Positions 14,183 to 63,431 of a DNA stretch of 64,000 bases are shown here, in pieces (the first letter of the stretch is position 1; each line of letters opens with the position of its first letter). The notes under the pieces were generated by a model, which was given only the letters and a program-made list of their open reading frames with translations, did no database searches and was not told the DNA's origin. The DNA comes from Escherichia phage 4MG: sequence record NC_022968.1; one strand, given 5' to 3'. The position numbers and the translations under genes are program-made.

Positions 14183-14241
14183 ATCCGTTTAGGTATTTTA
14201 CCACATTATCTTAGCAAAATCAACGATCAAGCGAAGGATAA

Positions 14242-14760: not shown

Positions 14761-14834
14761 TTTCGCTCCTGTTGGATTGCTCTTCTATTAATCAATATCT
14801 TATCATAAAAGATTCTATTTGTCATTAAAAAGAC

Positions 14835-14862
14835 TTGACAAGGCGTTATCACATGGTATATT
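14835..14862 (+). promoter_or_regulatory. sigma70-like promoter (TTGACA, 16 nt spacer, TATATT)
   Basis: -35 at 14835..14840, -10 at 14857..14862, upstream of RBS TAGGAGAA and ATG 14895. Confidence 0.5.
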
Positions 14863-14894: not shown

Positions 14895-15299
14895 ATGAAG
14901 AATACTAAGGGAATTGTTTCACTGGCTGTCGGTGCTGTTGTTGCGGCTTTGGTGACGACCACCTACATCATGAAGCATCCAAATCTGGACAACATGCAAG
15001 CCATCGAATCAAGCTGGCTGTCGAAGGAAGAGAAAACAGCAAGTATCCATCGACTTGTGCGTTTGTCTTGCGACCAATCATTTCGTAAGGCATTTAAGCC
15101 TGGGGTGTCTGTAGTGCAGACAGGGGAGATGGATGAGATCACAGAGCAAGCAGAAGGCTATCAATATCTCAACGATGTGGCAATCCTCTATGGAACGAAA
15201 GGTTACAAAGGGGCATACATCTGCACATACTATAAAGATGGTAAAGAGCCTATGGTTAATGTGAATATGGAAGCGGGTGTTAAACCACTCCTAAAATAA
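14895..15299 (+). CDS. membrane-anchored protein (134 aa), plus-strand insert in minus-strand structural block
   Basis: ATG with strong RBS; N-terminal hydrophobic segment IVSLAVGAVVAALVTTTYIM; own promoter and flanking hairpin. Confidence 0.55.
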   Translation: MKNTKGIVSLAVGAVVAALVTTTYIMKHPNLDNMQAIESSWLSKEEKTASIHRLVRLSCDQSFRKAFKPGVSVVQTGEMDEITEQAEGYQYLNDVAILYGTKGYKGAYICTYYKDGKEPMVNVNMEAGVKPLLK

Positions 15300-22786: not shown

Positions 22787-24337
22787 TTAATTATCCATAT
22801 TGGATACGGAATTGTCTCTTGTTGAGGAGATTTTTCCAGTTCCATTACCGCTAGAGCCTGCTGCCATACCATCACCGGAGCGACTGACATCCTGACCAAG
22901 GAGTTTCAGAAGTTCGTCGGTAGACATGTCCTCAGGAATCTCCTCATCAAAGCCACCAACTTCAAGGATCTTGTTGATAACAGTAGGAGTTTTAGGTAAG
23001 TACCCAACAGCACCAATACGCTGAACAAACTTGGAGAACCCTTCCATATCCACTTCTTGAATCAGTCCCGGCTTCAGTTTAGGCATGTCTTCGTCGGAAA
23101 GACGAATGTCATTTAGTGCCAGAAGCTGCGGGATCAGGTTCTTGTTGAACGCTTCAACAATGATGTCGATATCGCGTTGAACGAAGTGTCCGTGAATAGA
23201 TTGCTTGGATTCTGACAGGTTGTAGGAACCCTGACCATCGTTACCAAGGTTGATGAAACCAGCACCAAAACGGTCAAGGATCGCCTTTTTACGTGAGTTC
23301 ACCAGTTCTTGTGTGCTATACTGCTTACCAGCACCGTCAATGCCCTTCAGAGCCATCTTGTACTGTTCACCACCCTGAGCGTTCATATCTGAAGGTAGGA
23401 TGAAGTAAGCTTGCTCACCTGCGTGTGCGTTTGCAGCGTCAGCCATTAATCCTTGAACCATATCGGCTTCTGGGGATTTAGGGTCCATTGCTGCTTTGTT
23501 CAGAATCTGAGAAGGGATCTTAAGTTCAATGATACCACCAAGGTCTTTAGATGCCCCGATAGTCTCAAGGTTTTCAATCAAGATCTTCTCACGGAAGGCA
23601 CGATAACATCCAACCAAAGGAGATACACCCGCCGGGTTGGATTCTGTACCACCCAGACTCATCACCATCAATTTGTTGATAGGGATAAATACTTCATCAG
23701 CAGAGGATGTCAGGTTGGTAACCAGAGACATTGCAGAAGAAATCTGGGTCAATCCGTTCTGGAAGTTAGCAAAAGCCAGTTGGCTTTGGTAAATCCCTTT
23801 CAGTGTACGACCATCATCGTCGAAAACCCAAGGCTTAGAACGAGACAGGCTTGACTGAGGACGGAAAGCAATCTTATCAATAGTGATGTACCCTGCATAC
23901 TTTGACGGAGCAGATTCAGTACGGTATACTTTCTCAAAGATGGAAAAACCATATTCGTTGAAAGTTGCTGCACTACGAGCAACGTCACGAAGGGTTTGCT
24001 GGTTGGCAAGGTTCTTCAGGGCGTACTCTACAAACTCTGCGGCATCTTTGGAAGCTTGGCTATCACGATTGAACAGGATTTTAAAATCGTTGAATGCTTT
24101 AGTTACGAATACGTATTTCGTATCAAGCGCCGTGGAGACAGTATGATCCTGTTTCATCGCCTCTACGGTAGCCAGGAAGCAAGGCCAGCGTAGCTCTTCT
24201 ACCTTCATCACTTCGGACTCTGCACGAAGCTGGGAGAGAGCACCAGAGCCTAATTCCCCGGTACGGAGGCGGCTAACCGCAAGGTTTTCATTCCCTGCTT
24301 TTACAACCGCCCCTGGTTGTGCAAATCTTGTTGACAC
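22787..24337 (-). CDS. portal protein (516 aa)
   Basis: ~500 aa ORF immediately downstream of large terminase. Confidence 0.65.
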   Translation of the reverse strand: MSTRFAQPGAVVKAGNENLAVSRLRTGELGSGALSQLRAESEVMKVEELRWPCFLATVEAMKQDHTVSTALDTKYVFVTKAFNDFKILFNRDSQASKDAAEFVEYALKNLANQQTLRDVARSAATFNEYGFSIFEKVYRTESAPSKYAGYITIDKIAFRPQSSLSRSKPWVFDDDGRTLKGIYQSQLAFANFQNGLTQISSAMSLVTNLTSSADEVFIPINKLMVMSLGGTESNPAGVSPLVGCYRAFREKILIENLETIGASKDLGGIIELKIPSQILNKAAMDPKSPEADMVQGLMADAANAHAGEQAYFILPSDMNAQGGEQYKMALKGIDGAGKQYSTQELVNSRKKAILDRFGAGFINLGNDGQGSYNLSESKQSIHGHFVQRDIDIIVEAFNKNLIPQLLALNDIRLSDEDMPKLKPGLIQEVDMEGFSKFVQRIGAVGYLPKTPTVINKILEVGGFDEEIPEDMSTDELLKLLGQDVSRSGDGMAAGSSGNGTGKISSTRDNSVSNMDN

Positions 24338-24352
24338 GAGTTATCCCCTCTG

Positions 24353-25909
24353 TTAAAGTCTTTTATACAAGGTCGGAGCAACAATTTTCGGGATTACGAC
24401 AGGTCTGATGACTTCGTTCTTCTCAAGGTAGTTAATACCGGAAGCTACGCAGTCGGCCCAGTCATCCTTACGGGTTGTTGTGCTTCGCTCACCATTGAAC
24501 TTTTCAAGTTCGGTCATAAGGGCTTCGTAAGTTTTAGCATCAAAGCTGTCTCTTACGACACGTACCATTCCGGACTGTGCAAGTTTTGCAAATGGGGTGA
24601 AGCGGGTAAGTTTTGATTTGTTACCCGGCGTTGGATCTCGCTCAACGATAAATCCTTCAGCCAGAAGCTCACGAGAACTTGTTGTGAATTCACTAATACC
24701 AGCCTGACCAGGGTCAACGTTGAAAATGATAACAACGTCATCACCATCGTAATGGGCTTGCTTTTTAATGATCACATCACGTTCGCCAGCTTTTTTACAG
24801 AAACGACCTTGTGTTTGTGTTGAGTACATTCCGTCATCAACGAACTCAGGGCAATAGTCACCGGACAGGTAGTAGAACCCGTCACTATCCTTACTGATCT
24901 TGACAGACGCTGTAAAGTCGGGATATCTGTTGCCAGAGGTTCTCTCTGTACCCGCCTTATCGTAAGGACGGACAGATGTCACACCCAAAGGAAGGCAAGG
25001 AACTTCTTTCAAATAAGATCGTTGGAAATAGTTTGCACCTTCAGGGCGAACTTTCCAGTTACCGTGAAGTAGCTGTGCCTTTTCGATTTCAGGTAGACCT
25101 TCAAGGAACGCAAGGTAATCAGGGTTGTTGTCAAGCATCGGTGGGTTATCAAAGATAGTCGCACTGATGAATGAGAATGATAGTGGTTTTGGTTTCTTAC
25201 GAACGTCAAGACCATCCCAATACTGCTCGATCAGTTCCTCTGCACTCTCTCCCCAAATGAATTCACCATCACGACGAATGAACCAGCGAATAACACCGTC
25301 ACGTTCAGGGATAGGGAAACCATCATCATCAAGATACCATTCGATAAGCTCTTTGATCTTGTGATCTGGGTCCGGGTTACAAGAGATAACCATGCGGCTT
25401 GGGTATTTGGATTCAGAACGAAGACGAGACATAAGGTATTCGATCTGAGACCATTCAAACTGTGTTCCTTCGTCAAAACCGACAAAGGTATATTGCAGAC
25501 CCTGGTGAGAATACTTATCTTTCTCATATTCCATGTGGGACCACTTAACTTTAGCACCGGAAGGGAAAATTGCCTCTAGGTCTTTCTCCCTGAAGCGTGG
25601 CTTCCATTCAGGAGCAAGCTGTGTGTAAATGCCTCGTGCAGTATCATACAGACCACCACCACCTTTCAACTGAGGTGTGTTTCTACGGAACATAATACAG
25701 TTCGTTCTTGGGTCGTCGATAATGTTGAGGGGCATTAATTGAAGCAGGTAAGATTTACCTGACCCCGCCGCACCCCCAATGATCAGGATTTGTGCGTTGT
25801 TTTCCAGGATCATTTTCTGCTTGGGGCTGGCAGGTCCGAATGTTTTACTCAAAAGACCTCCATATTGTGCCTTAAATTGGCCTATAGGAGGTAGTTTACC
25901 ATGAAACAT
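24353..25909 (-). CDS. terminase large subunit
   Basis: Walker A IIGGAAGSGKS near N-terminus; start codon uncertain (ATG 25909, or alternative TTG at 25951). Confidence 0.75.
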   Translation of the reverse strand: MFHGKLPPIGQFKAQYGGLLSKTFGPASPKQKMILENNAQILIIGGAAGSGKSYLLQLMPLNIIDDPRTNCIMFRRNTPQLKGGGGLYDTARGIYTQLAPEWKPRFREKDLEAIFPSGAKVKWSHMEYEKDKYSHQGLQYTFVGFDEGTQFEWSQIEYLMSRLRSESKYPSRMVISCNPDPDHKIKELIEWYLDDDGFPIPERDGVIRWFIRRDGEFIWGESAEELIEQYWDGLDVRKKPKPLSFSFISATIFDNPPMLDNNPDYLAFLEGLPEIEKAQLLHGNWKVRPEGANYFQRSYLKEVPCLPLGVTSVRPYDKAGTERTSGNRYPDFTASVKISKDSDGFYYLSGDYCPEFVDDGMYSTQTQGRFCKKAGERDVIIKKQAHYDGDDVVIIFNVDPGQAGISEFTTSSRELLAEGFIVERDPTPGNKSKLTRFTPFAKLAQSGMVRVVRDSFDAKTYEALMTELEKFNGERSTTTRKDDWADCVASGINYLEKNEVIRPVVIPKIVAPTLYKRL

Positions 25910-25951
25910 GATAAAAATAAAGCCCTTATCACAAAATAAGGGCCTTGTCAA

Positions 25952-26242
25952 TCACTTTTTAGGATCAAATATGTTGCGAATATACTGCTGAAGGATGCGA
26001 AGTTTGCTACGATCATTTGCTCCGTCGAGGTTGTTCTTCTTCATGATCGCACTGTTAACCGAGTTGTCAGCACCATAAGGAAGAGGTGTAGGCTCAACAG
26101 GGTCAACCATAGCCGCAGCAGGAGGCTTTGCAAGGACTTCTGCTGGGTCAAACTTCTGCACCACTGGAACAACCTCAGGTGCATTTCTGCACCCGCTTAT
26201 AAGCGCTGTAGCAACCAGCACTGCGATTATCGTCTTTCTCAT
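25952..26242 (-). CDS. outer-membrane spanin lipoprotein (Rz1-like, 96 aa)
   Basis: signal peptide with lipobox LISGC, Pro-rich mature part; follows i-spanin with 4-nt overlap. Confidence 0.55.
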   Translation of the reverse strand: MRKTIIAVLVATALISGCRNAPEVVPVVQKFDPAEVLAKPPAAAMVDPVEPTPLPYGADNSVNSAIMKKNNLDGANDRSKLRILQQYIRNIFDPKK

Positions 26243-26643
26243 TTCAACCCCAGGCTCTCGTTATAAATATCCACAAAGTCATTATCCAGACCCTTCTTCT
26301 TTCCGTTATCAGAGTTTCGATAAGCGTCTTGCTTCTTGTCAAGCTCTGATTGCAGTTTTGCATTCTTTGCTTTCTCTTCCTCAAGTTGCTTACTTAACTC
26401 ATCAGAAGACTTCTGCTGGTTGTCTTTGTAGTCATGATTGGCATTCTTGTTTTCCTGTTGTTTGGCAGTCCACTTATCATCAGTATCTTTCACACCACGA
26501 TTGTAAGAAGCTGTGATTTGGTCATTGTACCAGTGCTTAGTATAAACCGCCCCGGAGAACAGGGCGATTGCTAAGATTGCTGCGATGACTAATTTAGTGT
26601 TGTTCCTGATAAAGGCAACCACCATTCTAACTACATCTATCAT
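26239..26643 (-). CDS. inner-membrane spanin (Rz-like, 134 aa)
   Basis: N-terminal TM helix then charged coiled-coil (EEEKAKNAKLQSELDKKQ). Confidence 0.55.
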   Translation of the reverse strand: MIDVVRMVVAFIRNNTKLVIAAILAIALFSGAVYTKHWYNDQITASYNRGVKDTDDKWTAKQQENKNANHDYKDNQQKSSDELSKQLEEEKAKNAKLQSELDKKQDAYRNSDNGKKKGLDNDFVDIYNESLGLK

Positions 26644-28064
26644 GAGATATCCCCATTTGATTCAATAAGACGTTCTATTCTGAGAAGAGTTTCTTCATCG
26701 TCAAGGATCTCAACCTGTGCATCATCATACGCGATCTTTGTTGGATCAAGCACGGTCACCTCAAGCAAAACAGCGCCCGGTTTGGAGAGTCTGTCGCCCC
26801 AACGTCCTGTTTTACCCTTCTCACCCCAAGACTTATAAACATCGTATGCTTCTTTCTCATCTACATACAGATTCATTACATCAAGGAATTCATCAGCAGG
26901 TTTTGTCTCCAGAAGCCCTACAGACTGGTTTGGGTTGGTTGCCTGCATCAGGTAGAAATTCTCTGCTGGACAAACACCCCATAACTTTGAGAAGTAAGGC
27001 CTGCCCGTATTCATACGGAGGCGTTGATACATAGAGAAGATGTTTTCCGGCTTTAACCCTCGGTATCGGCTGAACTGACCCTTTTCAGATTCCGTTGCGA
27101 TGCTGGAGATCATGTAATCACCCGCTGAATCCAGTTTATCAAATAATAGGTCAAATGAAAATGGTTTAGTTTCATTGAAAAGCTCTTCAACGTTTGTACC
27201 ATACATCCCACTCAGGTGTGCCTTGGCATCTTCCCACGATTCAATATTAAGACCTGTCGCTGCGATACCGAGCTTCATTGTTTCACGACGAGAGATCGTG
27301 TACCCACGGGCGCGGTATTTGTCTGAGCGAAGCATACTGATAATGGGGTAATCTGTGCCGGGATTAATCACCAGCACCTTTTGTGCTAAGTGCTTGAGGA
27401 ATCGGCTATCAAACTCCCATTTCTCGCTGGCAAAGCTGAAGGCACCCATATTGATCGTAAAGTCAAATTTATCGAAGATCGCCTGAGAATCCTGGAACAC
27501 ATCGAAAGCAATAACCTGCATCACCGGGGACGACTGATTGGTGAACATAACGCTCTTATCCGTCATACCGAGGTTGTAGATGTTGTCTGGTTTATTATCT
27601 TCAGTTGCCTTCTGGATAGCCTTGAATACATTCCCGTTTCTCTCCCGGAGCAGAGAATACAGCTTTGAAAGCTGAGATGCGGAGAGCGGGGTTGGTTGGC
27701 GCTCTTTCTTCTCACATACCAATGCGTTCACGTAATCTTTGTGGCAACCAGGGTTATCCAGTTCAAGGAAATAGACGAACGAACGTTTTGAATTGCCCCA
27801 GTTGTTACTTGTAGGGGTTAGGTCGCTGTCACCAATAAGTAGACCGCGATCAGTCATGTATGCGAGGAAGATCTCTAAGTTTTCCCATGATGGGAAGTAG
27901 AGGTCAAGGTCGTTGACTTCACGATTAGAGAACAGAGAGGTGAGCGTACCACCCGCAATACGGGCATCAAGACGCTTGAGGATCTCGTACACGCCCTTAG
28001 GGATCAGGCTGTTGAGGATATTGAATTCACGCTGGAAGTCTTCTTTTGGGTAAATATGAAGCAT
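26640..28064 (-). CDS. hypothetical protein with Pol-beta-type nucleotidyltransferase signature (474 aa)
   Basis: motif GGTLTSLFSNREVNDLDLYF fits G[GS]x9-13-DhDh; otherwise unassigned. Confidence 0.4.
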   Translation of the reverse strand: MLHIYPKEDFQREFNILNSLIPKGVYEILKRLDARIAGGTLTSLFSNREVNDLDLYFPSWENLEIFLAYMTDRGLLIGDSDLTPTSNNWGNSKRSFVYFLELDNPGCHKDYVNALVCEKKERQPTPLSASQLSKLYSLLRERNGNVFKAIQKATEDNKPDNIYNLGMTDKSVMFTNQSSPVMQVIAFDVFQDSQAIFDKFDFTINMGAFSFASEKWEFDSRFLKHLAQKVLVINPGTDYPIISMLRSDKYRARGYTISRRETMKLGIAATGLNIESWEDAKAHLSGMYGTNVEELFNETKPFSFDLLFDKLDSAGDYMISSIATESEKGQFSRYRGLKPENIFSMYQRLRMNTGRPYFSKLWGVCPAENFYLMQATNPNQSVGLLETKPADEFLDVMNLYVDEKEAYDVYKSWGEKGKTGRWGDRLSKPGAVLLEVTVLDPTKIAYDDAQVEILDDEETLLRIERLIESNGDIS

Positions 28065-28102: not shown

Positions 28103-28133
28103 AGAAAAAGAAAAGCCCCGCAAGAGCGGGGCG
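28103..28133 (-). terminator. rho-independent terminator at downstream end of tRNA cluster
   Basis: hairpin GCCCCGC-aaga-GCGGGGC with run of T on minus strand (A-run 28105..28114 on plus). Confidence 0.6.
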
Positions 28134-42187: not shown

Positions 42188-43097
42188 CGTAGATGATCTG
42201 GTTGCTAAAAAGCTGGTAACCAAAAAGACTTACACCGAAGGCCCGTTCGCGGGTCTGTCTGTACTGAAATATAAGAACAATGTGTTCTGGGATAACCTGT
42301 GGCACACAGATGCGCGTCTGCTTGAGTGCCGTGGCATGGTTGTTGATGCAGAGGACAACGTTGTTATCTGGCCTTTCACGAAGATTTTCAATCGCTTCGA
42401 GAACAACACTGATGTCCCACAGGACAAGTTGGTGTGCGTACCTCGTAAAGTCAATGGCTTTATGGCAGCAATGAGTGTTTACAATGGTGAAGTAATTGTG
42501 TCTACCACAGGAACACTTGATTCTGAGTTTGCACAAATGGCAAAAGATAAGATCACTGGTTCCATGCCTGAAGGGATGCTTGACTATTTCGTGAAGAATG
42601 CTGGACCTTGCACACTTATCTTTGAAATATGTGATGAGAGTGATCCCCACATTGTCGCAGAAGAAGCGGGTGCTTATCTGATTGGTTGCCGGGTCCACTT
42701 AAGTGGTGGTATGCTTCCAGAGTGGGACCTTGATAGAGTTGCAAATCGTTATGGTTGGAAACGTGCTGACTGGGACAACATGATCTTCAGCGATGTTGTT
42801 AAGGCTTCCAAGTCAGTTAATCATGAAGGTTTTGTTGTTCGTGATGTTGACACCAATGAGCTACTGCTGAAAATTAAGTCTCCACATTACCTGGCGAAGA
42901 AGTTCCTGATGCGTGGTAGCCAGAACAAGTGGGACCTGATTTGGGACAACCCGAAAGAAGCCAAAAAACGTATCGACGAAGAGTTCTACGAACTTCTTGA
43001 CTGGCTGCGCTGGGCTTACGAAAAAGATGAGTGGGCGGCTAAGGACTCTCAGTATCGTCGTATGATTATTGAAAAATATTTTGAGGATCGCAAATGA
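42177..43097 (+). CDS. ATP-dependent ligase-like nucleotidyltransferase, putative RNA ligase (306 aa)
   Basis: covalent nucleotidyltransferase motifs I KVNG, IV EGFVVR, V LLKIK; start ATG 42177 within ORF 42081..43097. Confidence 0.5.
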   Translation: MKFNVDDLVAKKLVTKKTYTEGPFAGLSVLKYKNNVFWDNLWHTDARLLECRGMVVDAEDNVVIWPFTKIFNRFENNTDVPQDKLVCVPRKVNGFMAAMSVYNGEVIVSTTGTLDSEFAQMAKDKITGSMPEGMLDYFVKNAGPCTLIFEICDESDPHIVAEEAGAYLIGCRVHLSGGMLPEWDLDRVANRYGWKRADWDNMIFSDVVKASKSVNHEGFVVRDVDTNELLLKIKSPHYLAKKFLMRGSQNKWDLIWDNPKEAKKRIDEEFYELLDWLRWAYEKDEWAAKDSQYRRMIIEKYFEDRK

Positions 43098-43330
43098 CAC
43101 TCATGTCAATCAAGAACAAACTTGACCGGGCTGTTTCCATAATTACCAGACTTATCATTGGGTTATCTGTGTTTATCTTCTTATTTGCACTGATAATCTT
43201 TGTGAATTGGGTTATCGAAACTCTGGGTGGTAAAGTAATATTCGGTGGAATTCTGCTCATCATTGCGGTGATTGGCTGTTATGGTGTTGGATGTTCCATC
43301 TACCCACACAAAGAAAAGGGTGAAAAATGA
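43094..43330 (+). CDS. small membrane protein (78 aa)
   Basis: two hydrophobic helices. Confidence 0.4.
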   Translation: MTLMSIKNKLDRAVSIITRLIIGLSVFIFLFALIIFVNWVIETLGGKVIFGGILLIIAVIGCYGVGCSIYPHKEKGEK

Positions 43331-44098: not shown

Positions 44099-44875
44099 TT
44101 GAGGCGTTTAATTGTTATTAGTGGTGCAGGCTTCTCTGCTGAAAGCGGTGTTCGTACATTCCGTACTGATACAGACTCCGGAAAGGCTTTGTGGGATGAG
44201 TACGACCTTGAAGAGGTCTGTAATATCCATGCTTTCCGTGGTAATTTCTATCACAAAACGCACATGTTTTATAACAAGCGTCGTGTAGAACTGCAAACTG
44301 TGCATCCGAATGCTGCACATATGCGTGTTGCTGAGTGGTATAAAAACTACCCAAAACAGGTTGTTAATCTGACGACAAACGTAGATGACCTGCTGGAACG
44401 TGCTGGTGTTCCTAAGGAAGATACTCTGTATATCCACGGATATCTGAAAGAACTTCGGTATAAACTTCACGAAGATTCTGAAGAGCAGTTAGTTGACATT
44501 GGTTACAATGAAGTAGATCCTGATGAATTTCACTGGTGCAAACCAAATGTGGTCTTCTTTGGTGAGGCTGCTCCAGCATATAACGACCTATACTCAACCC
44601 TAGATAGCCTGACATCTGAAGACATGGTGATTGTTGTTGGATGCTCAAACACAGTTATCAACTTCAACTGGGAGCTTTTCCCAGCATCAAGGATGGGTAC
44701 TAAGATTGTTGTGGTTAACCCTAATGTTCGCTACGATGAACAGTTGATGTACGAAGACGCTGGTGTTGTTGTATACCGAACTGGTGCTGTAGATGCGTTC
44801 AGCAACCCTGGTCTCATCAAAATGGTTGAGGATCACCTTGAAGGTAAAACCTCATTGCAGAAGAAGGAGAAATAA
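44099..44875 (+). CDS. Sir2-family (sirtuin-like) NAD-binding protein (258 aa)
   Basis: motifs GAGFSAESGVRTFR, TTNVDDL, YIHG, VVFFGE; canonical Zn-binding Cys pairs not evident; TTG start. Confidence 0.6.
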   Translation: MRRLIVISGAGFSAESGVRTFRTDTDSGKALWDEYDLEEVCNIHAFRGNFYHKTHMFYNKRRVELQTVHPNAAHMRVAEWYKNYPKQVVNLTTNVDDLLERAGVPKEDTLYIHGYLKELRYKLHEDSEEQLVDIGYNEVDPDEFHWCKPNVVFFGEAAPAYNDLYSTLDSLTSEDMVIVVGCSNTVINFNWELFPASRMGTKIVVVNPNVRYDEQLMYEDAGVVVYRTGAVDAFSNPGLIKMVEDHLEGKTSLQKKEK

Positions 44876-48038: not shown

Positions 48039-48401
48039 ATGGCACGTACCGCAAAAATCAAAGTAGCACTGATCACCTCCCTGCCTTCTGACCCGGCATC
48101 CCGCGAGCGTCTGAAGTCAACCGTTAACGAAATCGTTGATCTACAGCGTCAAATCGCTGACCTGAAAGACCAGATCAAGGACATTCGTGCTGTGGAAAAA
48201 GAAAACCACAACATCTCTCCTAAGTTCCTGAATTCTCTGGTAAAACGTGAGTACGATGTGCGTTATGAAGCAGAGAAGAAGACTGCTGCACTCGATGCAG
48301 AGCAAGAGATCTTCACCGAAGCGGATATCCTGTTCGGTCGCGGCAAGCCTGCAAATGTCGCACAAACCGAAGAAGATGACGGTGCTGAGGACGCTGAATA
48401 A
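48039..48401 (+). CDS. hypothetical acidic protein (120 aa)
   Basis: ORF track. Confidence 0.4.
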   Translation: MARTAKIKVALITSLPSDPASRERLKSTVNEIVDLQRQIADLKDQIKDIRAVEKENHNISPKFLNSLVKREYDVRYEAEKKTAALDAEQEIFTEADILFGRGKPANVAQTEEDDGAEDAE

Positions 48402-48592
48402 TGAAACACTACCTTAACGCTGTTGGTATCTTCCTGTTTATCTGCATCACCTTTGGCGTCGGTGTTCCGACGCTGGTGTCAGCGAAAGATACCCTGATGC
48501 TGTGTGCTGGTTTTGCATGGATCATCGCAACACCTGCAATCGTGTGGTATTGGGCGAGAAAAGCGTTCTTCCCTAAAAAATCGGAGGCGTAA
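48401..48592 (+). CDS. small membrane protein (63 aa)
   Basis: two hydrophobic segments. Confidence 0.4.
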   Translation: MKHYLNAVGIFLFICITFGVGVPTLVSAKDTLMLCAGFAWIIATPAIVWYWARKAFFPKKSEA

Positions 48593-48756
48593 TGTTACTA
48601 AACCTGAAAGCGTCTACCTGGGAAAAGTTGCAGCACTTAGCGCGAGTTAAGAATAAGTCTGCTGCTGCCCTTGTAGCAAAAATTGTTGACGAACATGTTG
48701 ACGAGAAAGTAAAAACTACCTATAAAATTGAAGAGGAGAACCAAACCAATGCTTAA
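48592..48756 (+). CDS. small ribbon-helix-helix-like DNA-binding protein (54 aa)
   Basis: ATG 48592 after RBS GGAGG; LNLKASTWEKLQHLAR..SAAALVAKIV pattern; hand-translated. Confidence 0.35.
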   Translation: MLLNLKASTWEKLQHLARVKNKSAAALVAKIVDEHVDEKVKTTYKIEEENQTNA

Positions 48757-49639
48757 GAATATCAAACGTGTGATTTTTGCTGGCCTGATCGCTCTGGGTG
48801 CCGTTGGCCTGACTGGTTGTGAACGTGCAACTGTCCCGGCAGGTTATGTGGGTGTGAAGGTTGACCTGTATGGCGACGAAAAGGGTGTTCAGCAGCAGGA
48901 AGTGGGTGTTGGTAAATACTGGCTGACCTGGAACGAAGAAATCTATCAGTTCCCTACATTCAACCAGTTAAACAACTACGACCAACCGTTTAACTTCCAG
49001 ACCAAGGATTCTATGACGGTCTCTGCGAAGGTTGGTGTTGAGTATTACGTTGACCGCTCCAAGGTCACCAAGATCTTCCAGACCTACCGTAAAGGTGTTC
49101 AGGAAATCACTGATGTCAACATTCGTCAGAACATCTCTGATGCACTGATCAAAGAAGCGGGTACGATGGATATCGGTACGCTGGCTGGCGATGGTAAATC
49201 TCAGCTTCTGGATCGTGTGACGAAGACCCTGAAAGCGAAGCTTGACCCGATTGGTATCGTGATCGTGAAACTGTCTTACACTGATGATCTGCGTTATCCA
49301 CCACAGGTAACCGCATCCATCAACGCGAAGATCGAAGCGACTCAGAAAGCGCTGCTGCGTGAAAACGAAATCCAGCAGACCAAAGCTGAAGCTCAGAAAC
49401 AGATCGAAGCCGCTCGCGGTGAAGCTGAATCTAAGCGACTGCAAGCTCAGGGTGAGGCAGATGCTAAAGTAGCACTGGCAAAAGGTGAAGCAGAATCCAT
49501 CCAACTGCGTGGTGATTCTCTCCGCAAAAACCCAGAAATTATGCAACTGGAAGCGATCAACAAGTGGAACGGTGTGACCCCGGTCTATATGACCAGCGGT
49601 TCTCAGACCCCATTCGTTACCCTGCCAGCAGGTAAATAA
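48749..49639 (+). CDS. SPFH/band-7 domain lipoprotein (296 aa)
   Basis: signal peptide with lipobox LTGC, then SPFH-like core and C-terminal coiled coil; start within ORF 48728..49639. Confidence 0.55.
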   Translation: MLKNIKRVIFAGLIALGAVGLTGCERATVPAGYVGVKVDLYGDEKGVQQQEVGVGKYWLTWNEEIYQFPTFNQLNNYDQPFNFQTKDSMTVSAKVGVEYYVDRSKVTKIFQTYRKGVQEITDVNIRQNISDALIKEAGTMDIGTLAGDGKSQLLDRVTKTLKAKLDPIGIVIVKLSYTDDLRYPPQVTASINAKIEATQKALLRENEIQQTKAEAQKQIEAARGEAESKRLQAQGEADAKVALAKGEAESIQLRGDSLRKNPEIMQLEAINKWNGVTPVYMTSGSQTPFVTLPAGK

Positions 49640-57889: not shown

Positions 57890-58119
57890 TGAGTAAAGAG
57901 AAGACCAAGTGGAAAGACCGTGGCTTTGATGATAAGCATCACTACGCCGGGTGGCTCTACTTCAATGATTTGACCGATGACAGTAAGATGTACGATGATG
58001 TTTACTATGATCAATATTCTGGTAAAATAATCAATGTCACTGCTCCGTCTGAAGAAACACCTCAAGACGAGGAAGTTGACGAAGCCGATAAATATCTTGC
58101 TCAATTCGAAGAGAAATAA
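57889..58119 (+). CDS. hypothetical acidic protein (76 aa)
   Basis: ORF track. Confidence 0.4.
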   Translation: MSKEKTKWKDRGFDDKHHYAGWLYFNDLTDDSKMYDDVYYDQYSGKIINVTAPSEETPQDEEVDEADKYLAQFEEK

Positions 58120-62876: not shown

Positions 62877-63431
62877 TTGAAACTAACGCTTGAACAACTC
62901 AACAAGATTTTTCCAGTAGGTGCATCCGCTGGGCGTAACGCAAAGTTCATTGATGCACTGAACGACTTGTTTGAGAAGGGTGGTATTAATACTGTCAACC
63001 GTATCGCCGGATTCCTCTCCCAAATTGGTGTGGAGTCTGCCGAGTTCCGTTACGTCAAGGAGCTTGGGAAGGATTCGTACTTTGATAAGTATGATACTGG
63101 CTCTATCGCAAAGCGTCTTGGTAACACCCCAGAGAAGGATGGGGATGGGGCCAAGTACAAGGGGAGAGGCCTGATTCAGGTAACCGGACTTGCAAACTAC
63201 AAAGCTTGCGGTAAGGCACTTGGTCTGGACCTCGTTAACCACCCAGAATTGCTTGAACAGCCTAAGTATGCAGTTGCCAGCGCTGGTTGGTATTGGAACA
63301 TGAGAAACATCAACGCCGCTTGCGATGCTGATGATATCGTTAAGATTACCAAGCTGGTAAACGGTGGTACAAACCACCTGGCCGAGCGCACAGCCTATTA
63401 CAAAAAGGCAAAATCTGTTCTAACCTCGTAA
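62877..63431 (+). CDS. GH19 chitinase-like endolysin (184 aa)
   Basis: TTG start after AAGGAGG; motifs AGFLSQIGVESAEF and YKGRGLIQVTGLANY typical of family 19 lysozymes. Confidence 0.65.
   Translation: MKLTLEQLNKIFPVGASAGRNAKFIDALNDLFEKGGINTVNRIAGFLSQIGVESAEFRYVKELGKDSYFDKYDTGSIAKRLGNTPEKDGDGAKYKGRGLIQVTGLANYKACGKALGLDLVNHPELLEQPKYAVASAGWYWNMRNINAACDADDIVKITKLVNGGTNHLAERTAYYKKAKSVLTS

Follow-up and report, generated by a model that had tools for sequence, protein, structure and literature searches.

What becomes of the lysis genes of a phage when they are not gathered in one cassette, and what do the genes that finish lysis have to do with their neighbors? This question is raised by a locus in Escherichia phage 4MG (sequence record NC_022968.1; genome 148,567 bp), of which we analyzed a stretch of 64,000 nucleotides (nt), here called the window. 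An earlier note on this DNA had placed an inner-membrane spanin (i-spanin) and an overlapping outer-membrane lipoprotein spanin (o-spanin) immediately upstream of the gene for the large terminase subunit (TerL), about 36 kb from the only recognizable endolysin gene and with no holin evident next to either. Our analysis supports this layout, and the two proteins are very probably the two-component spanin of 4MG. The two genes are:

26239..26643, minus strand: i-spanin, 134 amino acids (aa), ATG start
25952..26242, minus strand: o-spanin, 96 aa, ATG start

Both proteins belong to recognized spanin families. The i-spanin matched phrog_4297 ('Rz-like spanin', E=1.4e-51) and the o-spanin matched phrog_1267 ('Rz-like spanin', E=3.6e-23), and as sequence matches both are far above chance level. 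In addition, the o-spanin is an exact match to the RefSeq protein YP_008857291.1, 'Rz-like spanin [Escherichia phage 4MG]', and a database entry of the same name is 100% identical to the i-spanin. The sole hydrophobic segment of the i-spanin lies at about residues 16-34 (hydropathy analysis, KD19 maximum 2.0) and is preceded by R6, R13 and K17, the pattern of a type II protein with its N-terminus inside and its C-terminus outside. Proline and cysteine are both missing from the protein, and charged residues make up 39% of its periplasmic part. An AlphaFold2 model, computed from an alignment of 29 homologues, predicts one continuous helix from residue 16 to 109 (pLDDT 79); together with the coiled-coil region listed for the i-spanin of the relative GAP31 (one region, residues 70-117; supplement of Kongari et al. 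2018, PMC6139136), this points to a helical periplasmic domain.

The o-spanin begins with MRKTIIAVLVATALISG, a signal peptide that ends in the lipobox ISG and is followed by the lipidated cysteine C18. The residue at +2 is Arg and not Asp, as expected for sorting to the outer membrane. The mature form of 79 aa has 10 prolines (12.7%) and no cysteine besides C18. The stop of the i-spanin gene and the start of the o-spanin gene share 4 nt, ATGA, at 26239..26242, so that the second gene stands where an o-spanin gene is looked for. The overlap claimed earlier is thus real, and it amounts to 4 nt only; the pair is therefore placed in the 'separated' (T4-like) class of Kongari et al. and not among the overlapped or embedded spanins. 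Taken together, these features suggest with high probability that the 134-aa and 96-aa proteins form the two-component spanin of 4MG. This phage, a myophage that resembles rV5, belongs to the Vequintavirinae and is related to Seunavirus.

The position of the pair is shared by its relatives. The order tRNA genes, i-spanin, o-spanin, TerL and portal was found in rV5 (Vequintavirus), Ro1 (Mydovirus), Av-05 (Avunavirus), PBES02 (Certrevirus), GAP31 and PVP-SE1, and the order tRNA cluster, spanins, TerL and portal is thereby kept in five genera. Of the genomes in the phage collection, those of LNA4, EC152 and GAP31, all Vequintavirinae, come closest, with a nucleotide identity of about 87%, and the o-spanin family as a whole extends to 221 phage records. 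In the survey of Kongari et al. 2018 (PMC6139136), 4MG, Av-05, PVP-SE1 and GAP31 make up one i-spanin family and are joined with rV5 in one o-spanin family; the supplement lists the GAP31 and PVP-SE1 pairs as 'separated, -4'. The genes that flank the 4MG pair are the following:

24353..25852, minus strand: TerL, 499 aa (phrog_979, E=3e-214; PF03237; PF17289)
22787..24337, minus strand: portal-like gene, next after TerL
26640..28064, minus strand: ORF474, an open reading frame (ORF) of 474 aa whose stop overlaps the i-spanin start (ATGA)

The likely start of TerL is a TTG at 25852, after a GGAGG Shine-Dalgarno sequence, which gives a gene of 1500 nt, the length also annotated in GAP31, PVP-SE1 and Ro1. 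With this start the gap between TerL and the o-spanin stop is 99 nt, and the claim that the spanins lie directly upstream of TerL is thus borne out by the reading frames, the PHROG matches and the spacing. On the other side, beyond ORF474 and upstream of the spanins, 25 tRNA genes are clustered. Inside this run ARAGORN reported a 70-nt tRNA-like gene with an undetermined anticodon (30264..30333, minus strand); at the homologous position the GAP31 annotation has a tRNA pseudogene.

Which enzyme would open the wall for these spanins? The endolysin gene of the window is:

62877..63431, plus strand: GH19 endolysin, 184 aa, TTG start (PF00182 Glyco_hydro_19; phrog_181)

Its product contains a GH19 catalytic domain (39.8 bits against PF00182, cutoff 25.5; E=3e-73 against phrog_181) and is an exact match to RefSeq YP_008857355.1, 'endolysin [Escherichia phage 4MG]'. 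It is a globular protein without an N-terminal peptidoglycan-binding domain, and in its first 40 residues, where the KD19 maximum is 0.41, there is neither a signal peptide nor a signal-arrest-release (SAR) sequence. Since the N-terminus is not hydrophobic, the enzyme would be of the cytoplasmic, holin-dependent type. The gene lies 36,234 nt (36.2 kb) from the i-spanin start, as the earlier note had estimated, flanked by phoH and by a gene for a 141-aa protein (phrog_7650, unknown function); nrdA, nrdB and glutaredoxin belong to the same block, and it is from such nucleotide-metabolism neighbors that the 'early block' of the note may be inferred. A tblastn search of the 64-kb window with the relatives' SleB-like hydrolase and several small membrane proteins gave no match, so the GH19 protein is the sole recognizable endolysin there.

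The 4MG endolysin is the short form of its family. In PVP-SE1 and several metagenomic relatives of the same 90% cluster the protein has 236 aa (L003 3605..4315) and an N-terminal extension, which is the known peptidoglycan-binding module of PVP-SE1 gp146; the PVP-SE1 endolysin has been annotated with both starts. A homologous GH19 enzyme of phage KPP-1, with the same TTG start, has been purified and lysed cells, and no holin was found in that phage (PMC9862379). Outside the 4MG window the relatives have a second wall hydrolase. GAP31_003 is a Hydrolase_2/SleB-like protein (PF07486, E=7e-21) with a signal peptide, and directly downstream of it GAP31_002 encodes 57 aa with two transmembrane domains (TMDs) and a very basic C-terminus. 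The pair (L004 2007..2727) lies beside rIIA, about 58 kb from the spanins, and we consider it the best cassette-like candidate for a holin and lysin in this phage group.

Where, then, is the holin? The note had stated that none is evident beside either locus, and this held: neither ORF474 nor TerL, which flank the spanins, has a TMD, and the same is true of the phrog_7650 protein and PhoH on the two sides of the endolysin gene, which is thus not part of a classic cassette. The complete genome of GAP31, a close relative, has no second endolysin/holin pair next to its spanins, an arrangement that would have contradicted the note. Two small membrane proteins had been named as possible holins:

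48401..48592, plus strand: candidate holin, 63 aa, two TMDs, basic C-terminus (phrog_1130, 'membrane protein')
43094..43330, plus strand: candidate holin, 78 aa, two TMDs (phrog_30308, function unknown)

By hydropathy both have the topology of a class II holin (small, two TMDs, both termini inside, charged C-terminus), and this much of the suggestion stood. Neither can be called a holin, since they have no Pfam or NCBIfam match and no homology to known holins and do not adjoin a lysin gene; RefSeq proteins of exactly the same sequence are named 'membrane protein'. The 63-aa protein is the better conserved of the two, being present in 67 phage records from several genera, and in every context inspected its gene stands just upstream of a lipoprotein gene with an SPFH/Band-7 domain (48728..49639). 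Such a linkage possibly reflects a role as partner of that lipoprotein, which it fits at least as well as a role as holin. The segment 48401..49639 (plus strand) is a conserved trio, in which the 63-aa protein is followed by a protein of 54 aa, for which a ribbon-helix-helix match is weak, and by the 303-aa SPFH/Band-7 lipoprotein (PF01145, E=2e-21); in the distant phage TH18 the membrane protein and the lipoprotein are still adjacent. The 78-aa protein at 43094..43330 was rejected as a core holin: tblastn found it in three records only, two of GAP31 and one of EC152, and its gene is therefore accessory. In the same part of the window, 44099..44875 (plus strand) is an ORF of 258 aa that starts with a GAGxS-type motif, of the kind typical of NAD-dependent deacetylases of the Sir2 family; genes that relatives annotate for NAD salvage (NAMPT, PRPP synthetase) are close by.

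A further membrane protein, of 134 aa with one N-terminal TMD, is encoded at 14895..15299 (plus strand) inside the late structural block and occurs in 64 records. It was also rejected as a holin, as the gene is on the opposite strand and has upstream a near-consensus sigma-70 promoter (about 14826..14860; TTGACA-17-TATATT with TG) that points to early expression; its product could be a membrane protein made early, an exclusion factor for example. The annotation of the complete GAP31 genome lists no holin. Among other small proteins with two TMDs and a basic tail we counted GAP31_117 and a trio of membrane proteins encoded after the GAP31 tail fiber genes. The holin candidates of relatives (GAP31_002, _117 and _228-230) lie outside the 4MG window, as judged by tblastn.

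The gene directly upstream of the spanins is coupled to the i-spanin gene by an ATGA junction of its own and was therefore considered as a lysis partner. ORF474 matches phrog_16176, of unknown function, and has the precomputed Pfam family PF26128. By exact sequence it is a 4MG protein, as are the o-spanin, the endolysin and the two small membrane proteins, so that all five products looked up in this way come from 4MG. A nucleotidyltransferase motif of the Pol-beta type, GG..DxD, is invariant in 38 of its homologues. When its AlphaFold2 model (pLDDT 82) was compared with known structures by Foldseek, the best matches in the Protein Data Bank (PDB) were 3aql and 5hc9, with E about 1e-4 and low TM scores of 0.26-0.30; these top matches are the poly(A) polymerase of E. 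coli and CCA-adding enzymes of class II. By sequence, no PDB chain matched ORF474. The predicted fold suggests that ORF474 is a Pol-beta-type nucleotidyltransferase, distantly related to class II CCA-adding enzymes and poly(A) polymerases, and its position beside the tRNA cluster fits a function at RNA 3' ends and not in lysis. ORF474 is present in GAP31, PVP-SE1 (as two ORFs), Mydovirus and Avunavirus, where it always stands between the tRNA genes and the i-spanin gene, and it is absent from rV5 and Certrevirus. With this fold and this distribution it was rejected as a partner of the spanins.

Are the spanins the first genes of the terminase mRNA, or do they merely stand next to it? We looked at the possible boundaries of transcription units around them and found these features:

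25919..25946, minus strand: terminator-like hairpin from a consensus scan, 12-bp stem followed by ATTTTTAT, 5 nt past the o-spanin stop
25889..25901, minus strand: late-promoter-like motif TGGTAAACTACCT, about 37 nt upstream of the TerL start, with a presumed function
28115..28132, minus strand: GC-rich terminator-like hairpin, GCCCCGC-TCTT-GCGGGGC followed by a T-run, between the tRNA cluster and ORF474
25892..25901 (minus strand), 14194..14203 (minus strand) and 58020..58029 (plus strand): copies of TGGTAAAMTA

The intergenic RNA between the o-spanin gene and TerL has a folding energy of -36.5 kcal/mol (z=-5.1). Its hairpin is kept in GAP31, Ro1 and Av-05 and recurs with another stem sequence in the Certrevirus PBES02. 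GAP31, Ro1, Av-05 and rV5 have the upstream hairpin in the corresponding place, and PBES02 has it with another stem, so that it occurs in all five genera; it would mark the upstream edge of the spanin unit. The motif TGGTAAACTACCT, conserved in GAP31, Ro1 and Av-05, resembles 'TggTAaAAtA', a late-promoter-like motif described upstream of late genes in the rV5 paper (PMC3606486). In the window TGGTAAAMTA occurs three times versus 0.16 expected, and a longer form of the motif is common to the TerL copy and to 14191..14202 (minus strand), upstream of a structural gene. Read in the simplest way, these sequence features would delimit a short unit, in which ORF474 and the two spanin genes stand between terminators, and TerL would begin a late transcript of its own. 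With the hairpin and the motif in front of TerL, the spanins, although they adjoin it, are probably not the first genes of its mRNA. As an addition to the disulfide-free reading given below, and a less likely one, the pair would be made from its own short unit, together with the CCA-adding/poly(A)-polymerase-like enzyme, and not from the late head operon.

From these elements the following course of lysis can be proposed. The 134-aa i-spanin would sit in the inner membrane with its one N-terminal helix and reach into the periplasm with its long helical domain, and the 96-aa o-spanin would be processed at its lipobox, lipidated at Cys18 and sorted to the outer membrane in keeping with Arg at +2. 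By analogy with lambda Rz/Rz1 and T4 PseT.3/PseT.2, the C-termini of the two proteins would bind each other through the peptidoglycan mesh. As presumed from such systems, a holin would let out the cytoplasmic GH19 endolysin, which would remove the wall, and the spanin complexes freed in this way would fuse the inner membrane with the outer one, which completes lysis. The lysis genes are dispersed as in T4: the spanins occupy a conserved slot that has the tRNA cluster on one side and the TerL-portal-head operon on the other, and the endolysin gene is 36 kb off.

Several points weigh against this proposal. Homology and architecture are the only grounds for the spanin function, neither protein had more than sub-threshold noise in Pfam and NCBIfam scans, and the pair has no periplasmic cysteine, the i-spanin having none at all and the o-spanin only the lipidated C18. 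Moreover, the model needs a holin, and none was recognized in the window or in the GAP31 annotation. The absence of a curated family model and of a periplasmic cysteine, together with a gene position outside any lysis cassette, could also be explained if the two were an unrelated pair of membrane protein and lipoprotein, for instance of the Cor/Llp type that acts in superinfection exclusion. We regard this as very improbable in view of the strong PHROG matches, the combination of a TMD and helical domain with an adjacent lipoprotein gene at an ATGA junction and a proline-rich mature product, and the fact that the pair occurs throughout the subfamily in the same gene order, is curated as spanins in the Young laboratory's survey and has no competing spanin candidate in the window. 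A further alternative keeps the spanins and changes the enzyme: the main lysis would be carried out by the secreted SleB-like hydrolase with its 57-aa two-TMD partner of the pinholin type, the GH19 protein would be accessory, and the spanins would act after the SleB-like pair, so that 'far from the endolysin' would name the wrong enzyme. GAP31_003 with its Hydrolase_2 domain and signal peptide, adjoined by the two-TMD, basic-tailed GAP31_002, speaks for this idea, as does the CR3 homologue, which the CB7 paper implicates in lysis, with toxic expression and a neighboring small protein as class II holin candidate (PMC7344957). BME3 and phiSalP219 (the latter from PMC11358711) carry both enzymes. 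GH19 homologues are, however, muralytically active themselves (PMC9862379), and we find this division of labor rather unlikely. As the SleB-like pair lies outside the window and about 58 kb from the GAP31 spanins, it would in any case leave the conclusion of dispersed lysis genes unchanged.

The short-unit reading has its own competitor, in which the late morphogenesis operon begins with the spanins, co-transcribed with TerL and portal. Spanin synthesis would then be tied to packaging, and the hairpin would merely attenuate the transcript or stabilize the mRNA. All these genes are on the same strand, the spacing is 99 nt and the order is conserved in five genera; in rV5 the hairpin is absent and the o-spanin stop abuts the TerL start; and upstream of ORF474 there is no convincing sigma-70 promoter. 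Furthermore, one of the three TGGTAAAMTA copies precedes nrdA, which is not a late gene, and the motif cannot for that reason be called a late promoter. Since the hairpins and the motif are consensus matches only and rV5 lacks the hairpin, co-transcription is still a live rival, one that we take seriously without thinking it probable. What speaks for separate units is that the stable hairpin with its T-run after the o-spanin stop recurs in four genera, in one of them with another stem, that the conserved late-promoter-like motif comes downstream of it, and that a similar sequence, TGGTACACT, comes downstream of the upstream hairpin at 28115..28132. Our literature search found no transcriptome of a Vequintavirinae phage.

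How would a spanin without periplasmic cysteines work? A periplasmic cysteine is present in about 96% of two-component spanins, and the 4MG pair belongs to the roughly 4% without one; lambda spanin function needs at least one intermolecular disulfide and that of T4 needs two, and Kongari et al. treat the cysteine as near-universal and not as strictly defining (PMC6139136). In an alignment of the 14 closest o-spanin homologues C18 is invariant and the sole cysteine, nearly all of the 29 i-spanin homologues have no cysteine, and the Mydovirus pair likewise has none in the periplasm. Elsewhere in the same family the rV5 o-spanin has one periplasmic cysteine, the Certrevirus o-spanin has two at its C-terminus, and the i-spanins of Av-05 and a few others have one at position 118. 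The cysteines of rV5, Certrevirus and Avunavirus are thus at non-homologous positions, a pattern that suggests that the disulfide link can be gained and lost within one spanin family. The spanins of the 4MG clade and Mydovirus would probably work without any periplasmic disulfide. If this is true, covalent homodimerization would be an interchangeable and dispensable add-on and not a universal requirement of two-component spanins, and the 4MG clade would offer a natural test of whether such spanins can work without disulfide bonds. As a sequence observation, the cysteine pattern is an angle that is only mildly new.

The arrangement itself is already known, as the genes are named in RefSeq, included in the Kongari survey and published for the phage group. 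That spanins of these phages adjoin the large terminase gene or lie at a distance from the lysin, and that no holin has been identified, is stated in PMC7344957, PMC6658697 and PMC11358711. The LL12 announcement lists TerL as gp64, the o-spanin as gp65 and the i-spanin as gp66, with a holin that could not be identified (PMC6658697), and the phiSalP219 study found neither a protein with a TMD encoded upstream of the endolysin nor a homologue of a holin (PMC11358711). As to candidates, the CB7 authors considered that the homologous SleB-like pair might be a lysin and a class II holin (PMC7344957), and in the work on rV5 a protein of 78 aa with two TMDs, gp129, was put forward as a holin that is not linked to the lysin, 'as in phage T4' (PMC3606486). 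Because the genes were already annotated and their terminase-side position is in print, the finding is correct but ordinary. Its useful remainder is the holin question and the disulfide-free spanins; rV5-like phages are widely used in biocontrol and therapy, which gives the identity of their holin a practical interest.

Compared with other pairs of the Seunavirus group, the 4MG spanins show no difference of substance. The GAP31 pair (gp194/195) is 90% (i-spanin) and 94% (o-spanin) identical to that of 4MG and agrees with it in the ATGA junction and in its place next to TerL, and the PVP-SE1 pair (gp78/77) shares the junction and the place beside TerL. The pairs of rV5 (gp67/68) and LL12 (gp65/66) are homologous to the 4MG family, with about 40% identity of the o-spanin by tblastn, and like the 4MG genes they lie directly upstream of TerL. 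Unlike 4MG, rV5 has no ORF474 and its o-spanin gene abuts TerL without a hairpin; its endolysin is a T4-type lysozyme (Phage_lysozyme), whereas that of 4MG is a GH19 enzyme.

In lambda Rz/Rz1, as in 4MG, a type II helical inner-membrane protein is combined with a small proline-rich outer-membrane lipoprotein, and the final step of lysis is presumably the same. The genes are organized differently, since in the S-R-Rz/Rz1 cassette the Rz1 gene lies inside Rz, in a different frame, while the 4MG genes are separate from each other and unlinked to a holin and to the endolysin. The lambda spanins form three intermolecular disulfides, of which at least one is required, in contrast to the cysteine-free 4MG pair. 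T4 is closer in layout: its PseT.3/PseT.2 genes are of the separated type with a 4-nt overlap and an i-spanin without cysteine, and T4, too, is a large virulent myophage with dispersed lysis genes, its spanins being unlinked to holin t and endolysin e. However, no sequence family link was seen between the T4 and 4MG spanins, and their PHROG families differ. T4 PseT.2 has two essential periplasmic cysteines where the 4MG o-spanin has none, and the T4 pair does not stand beside the terminase gene, as that of 4MG does.

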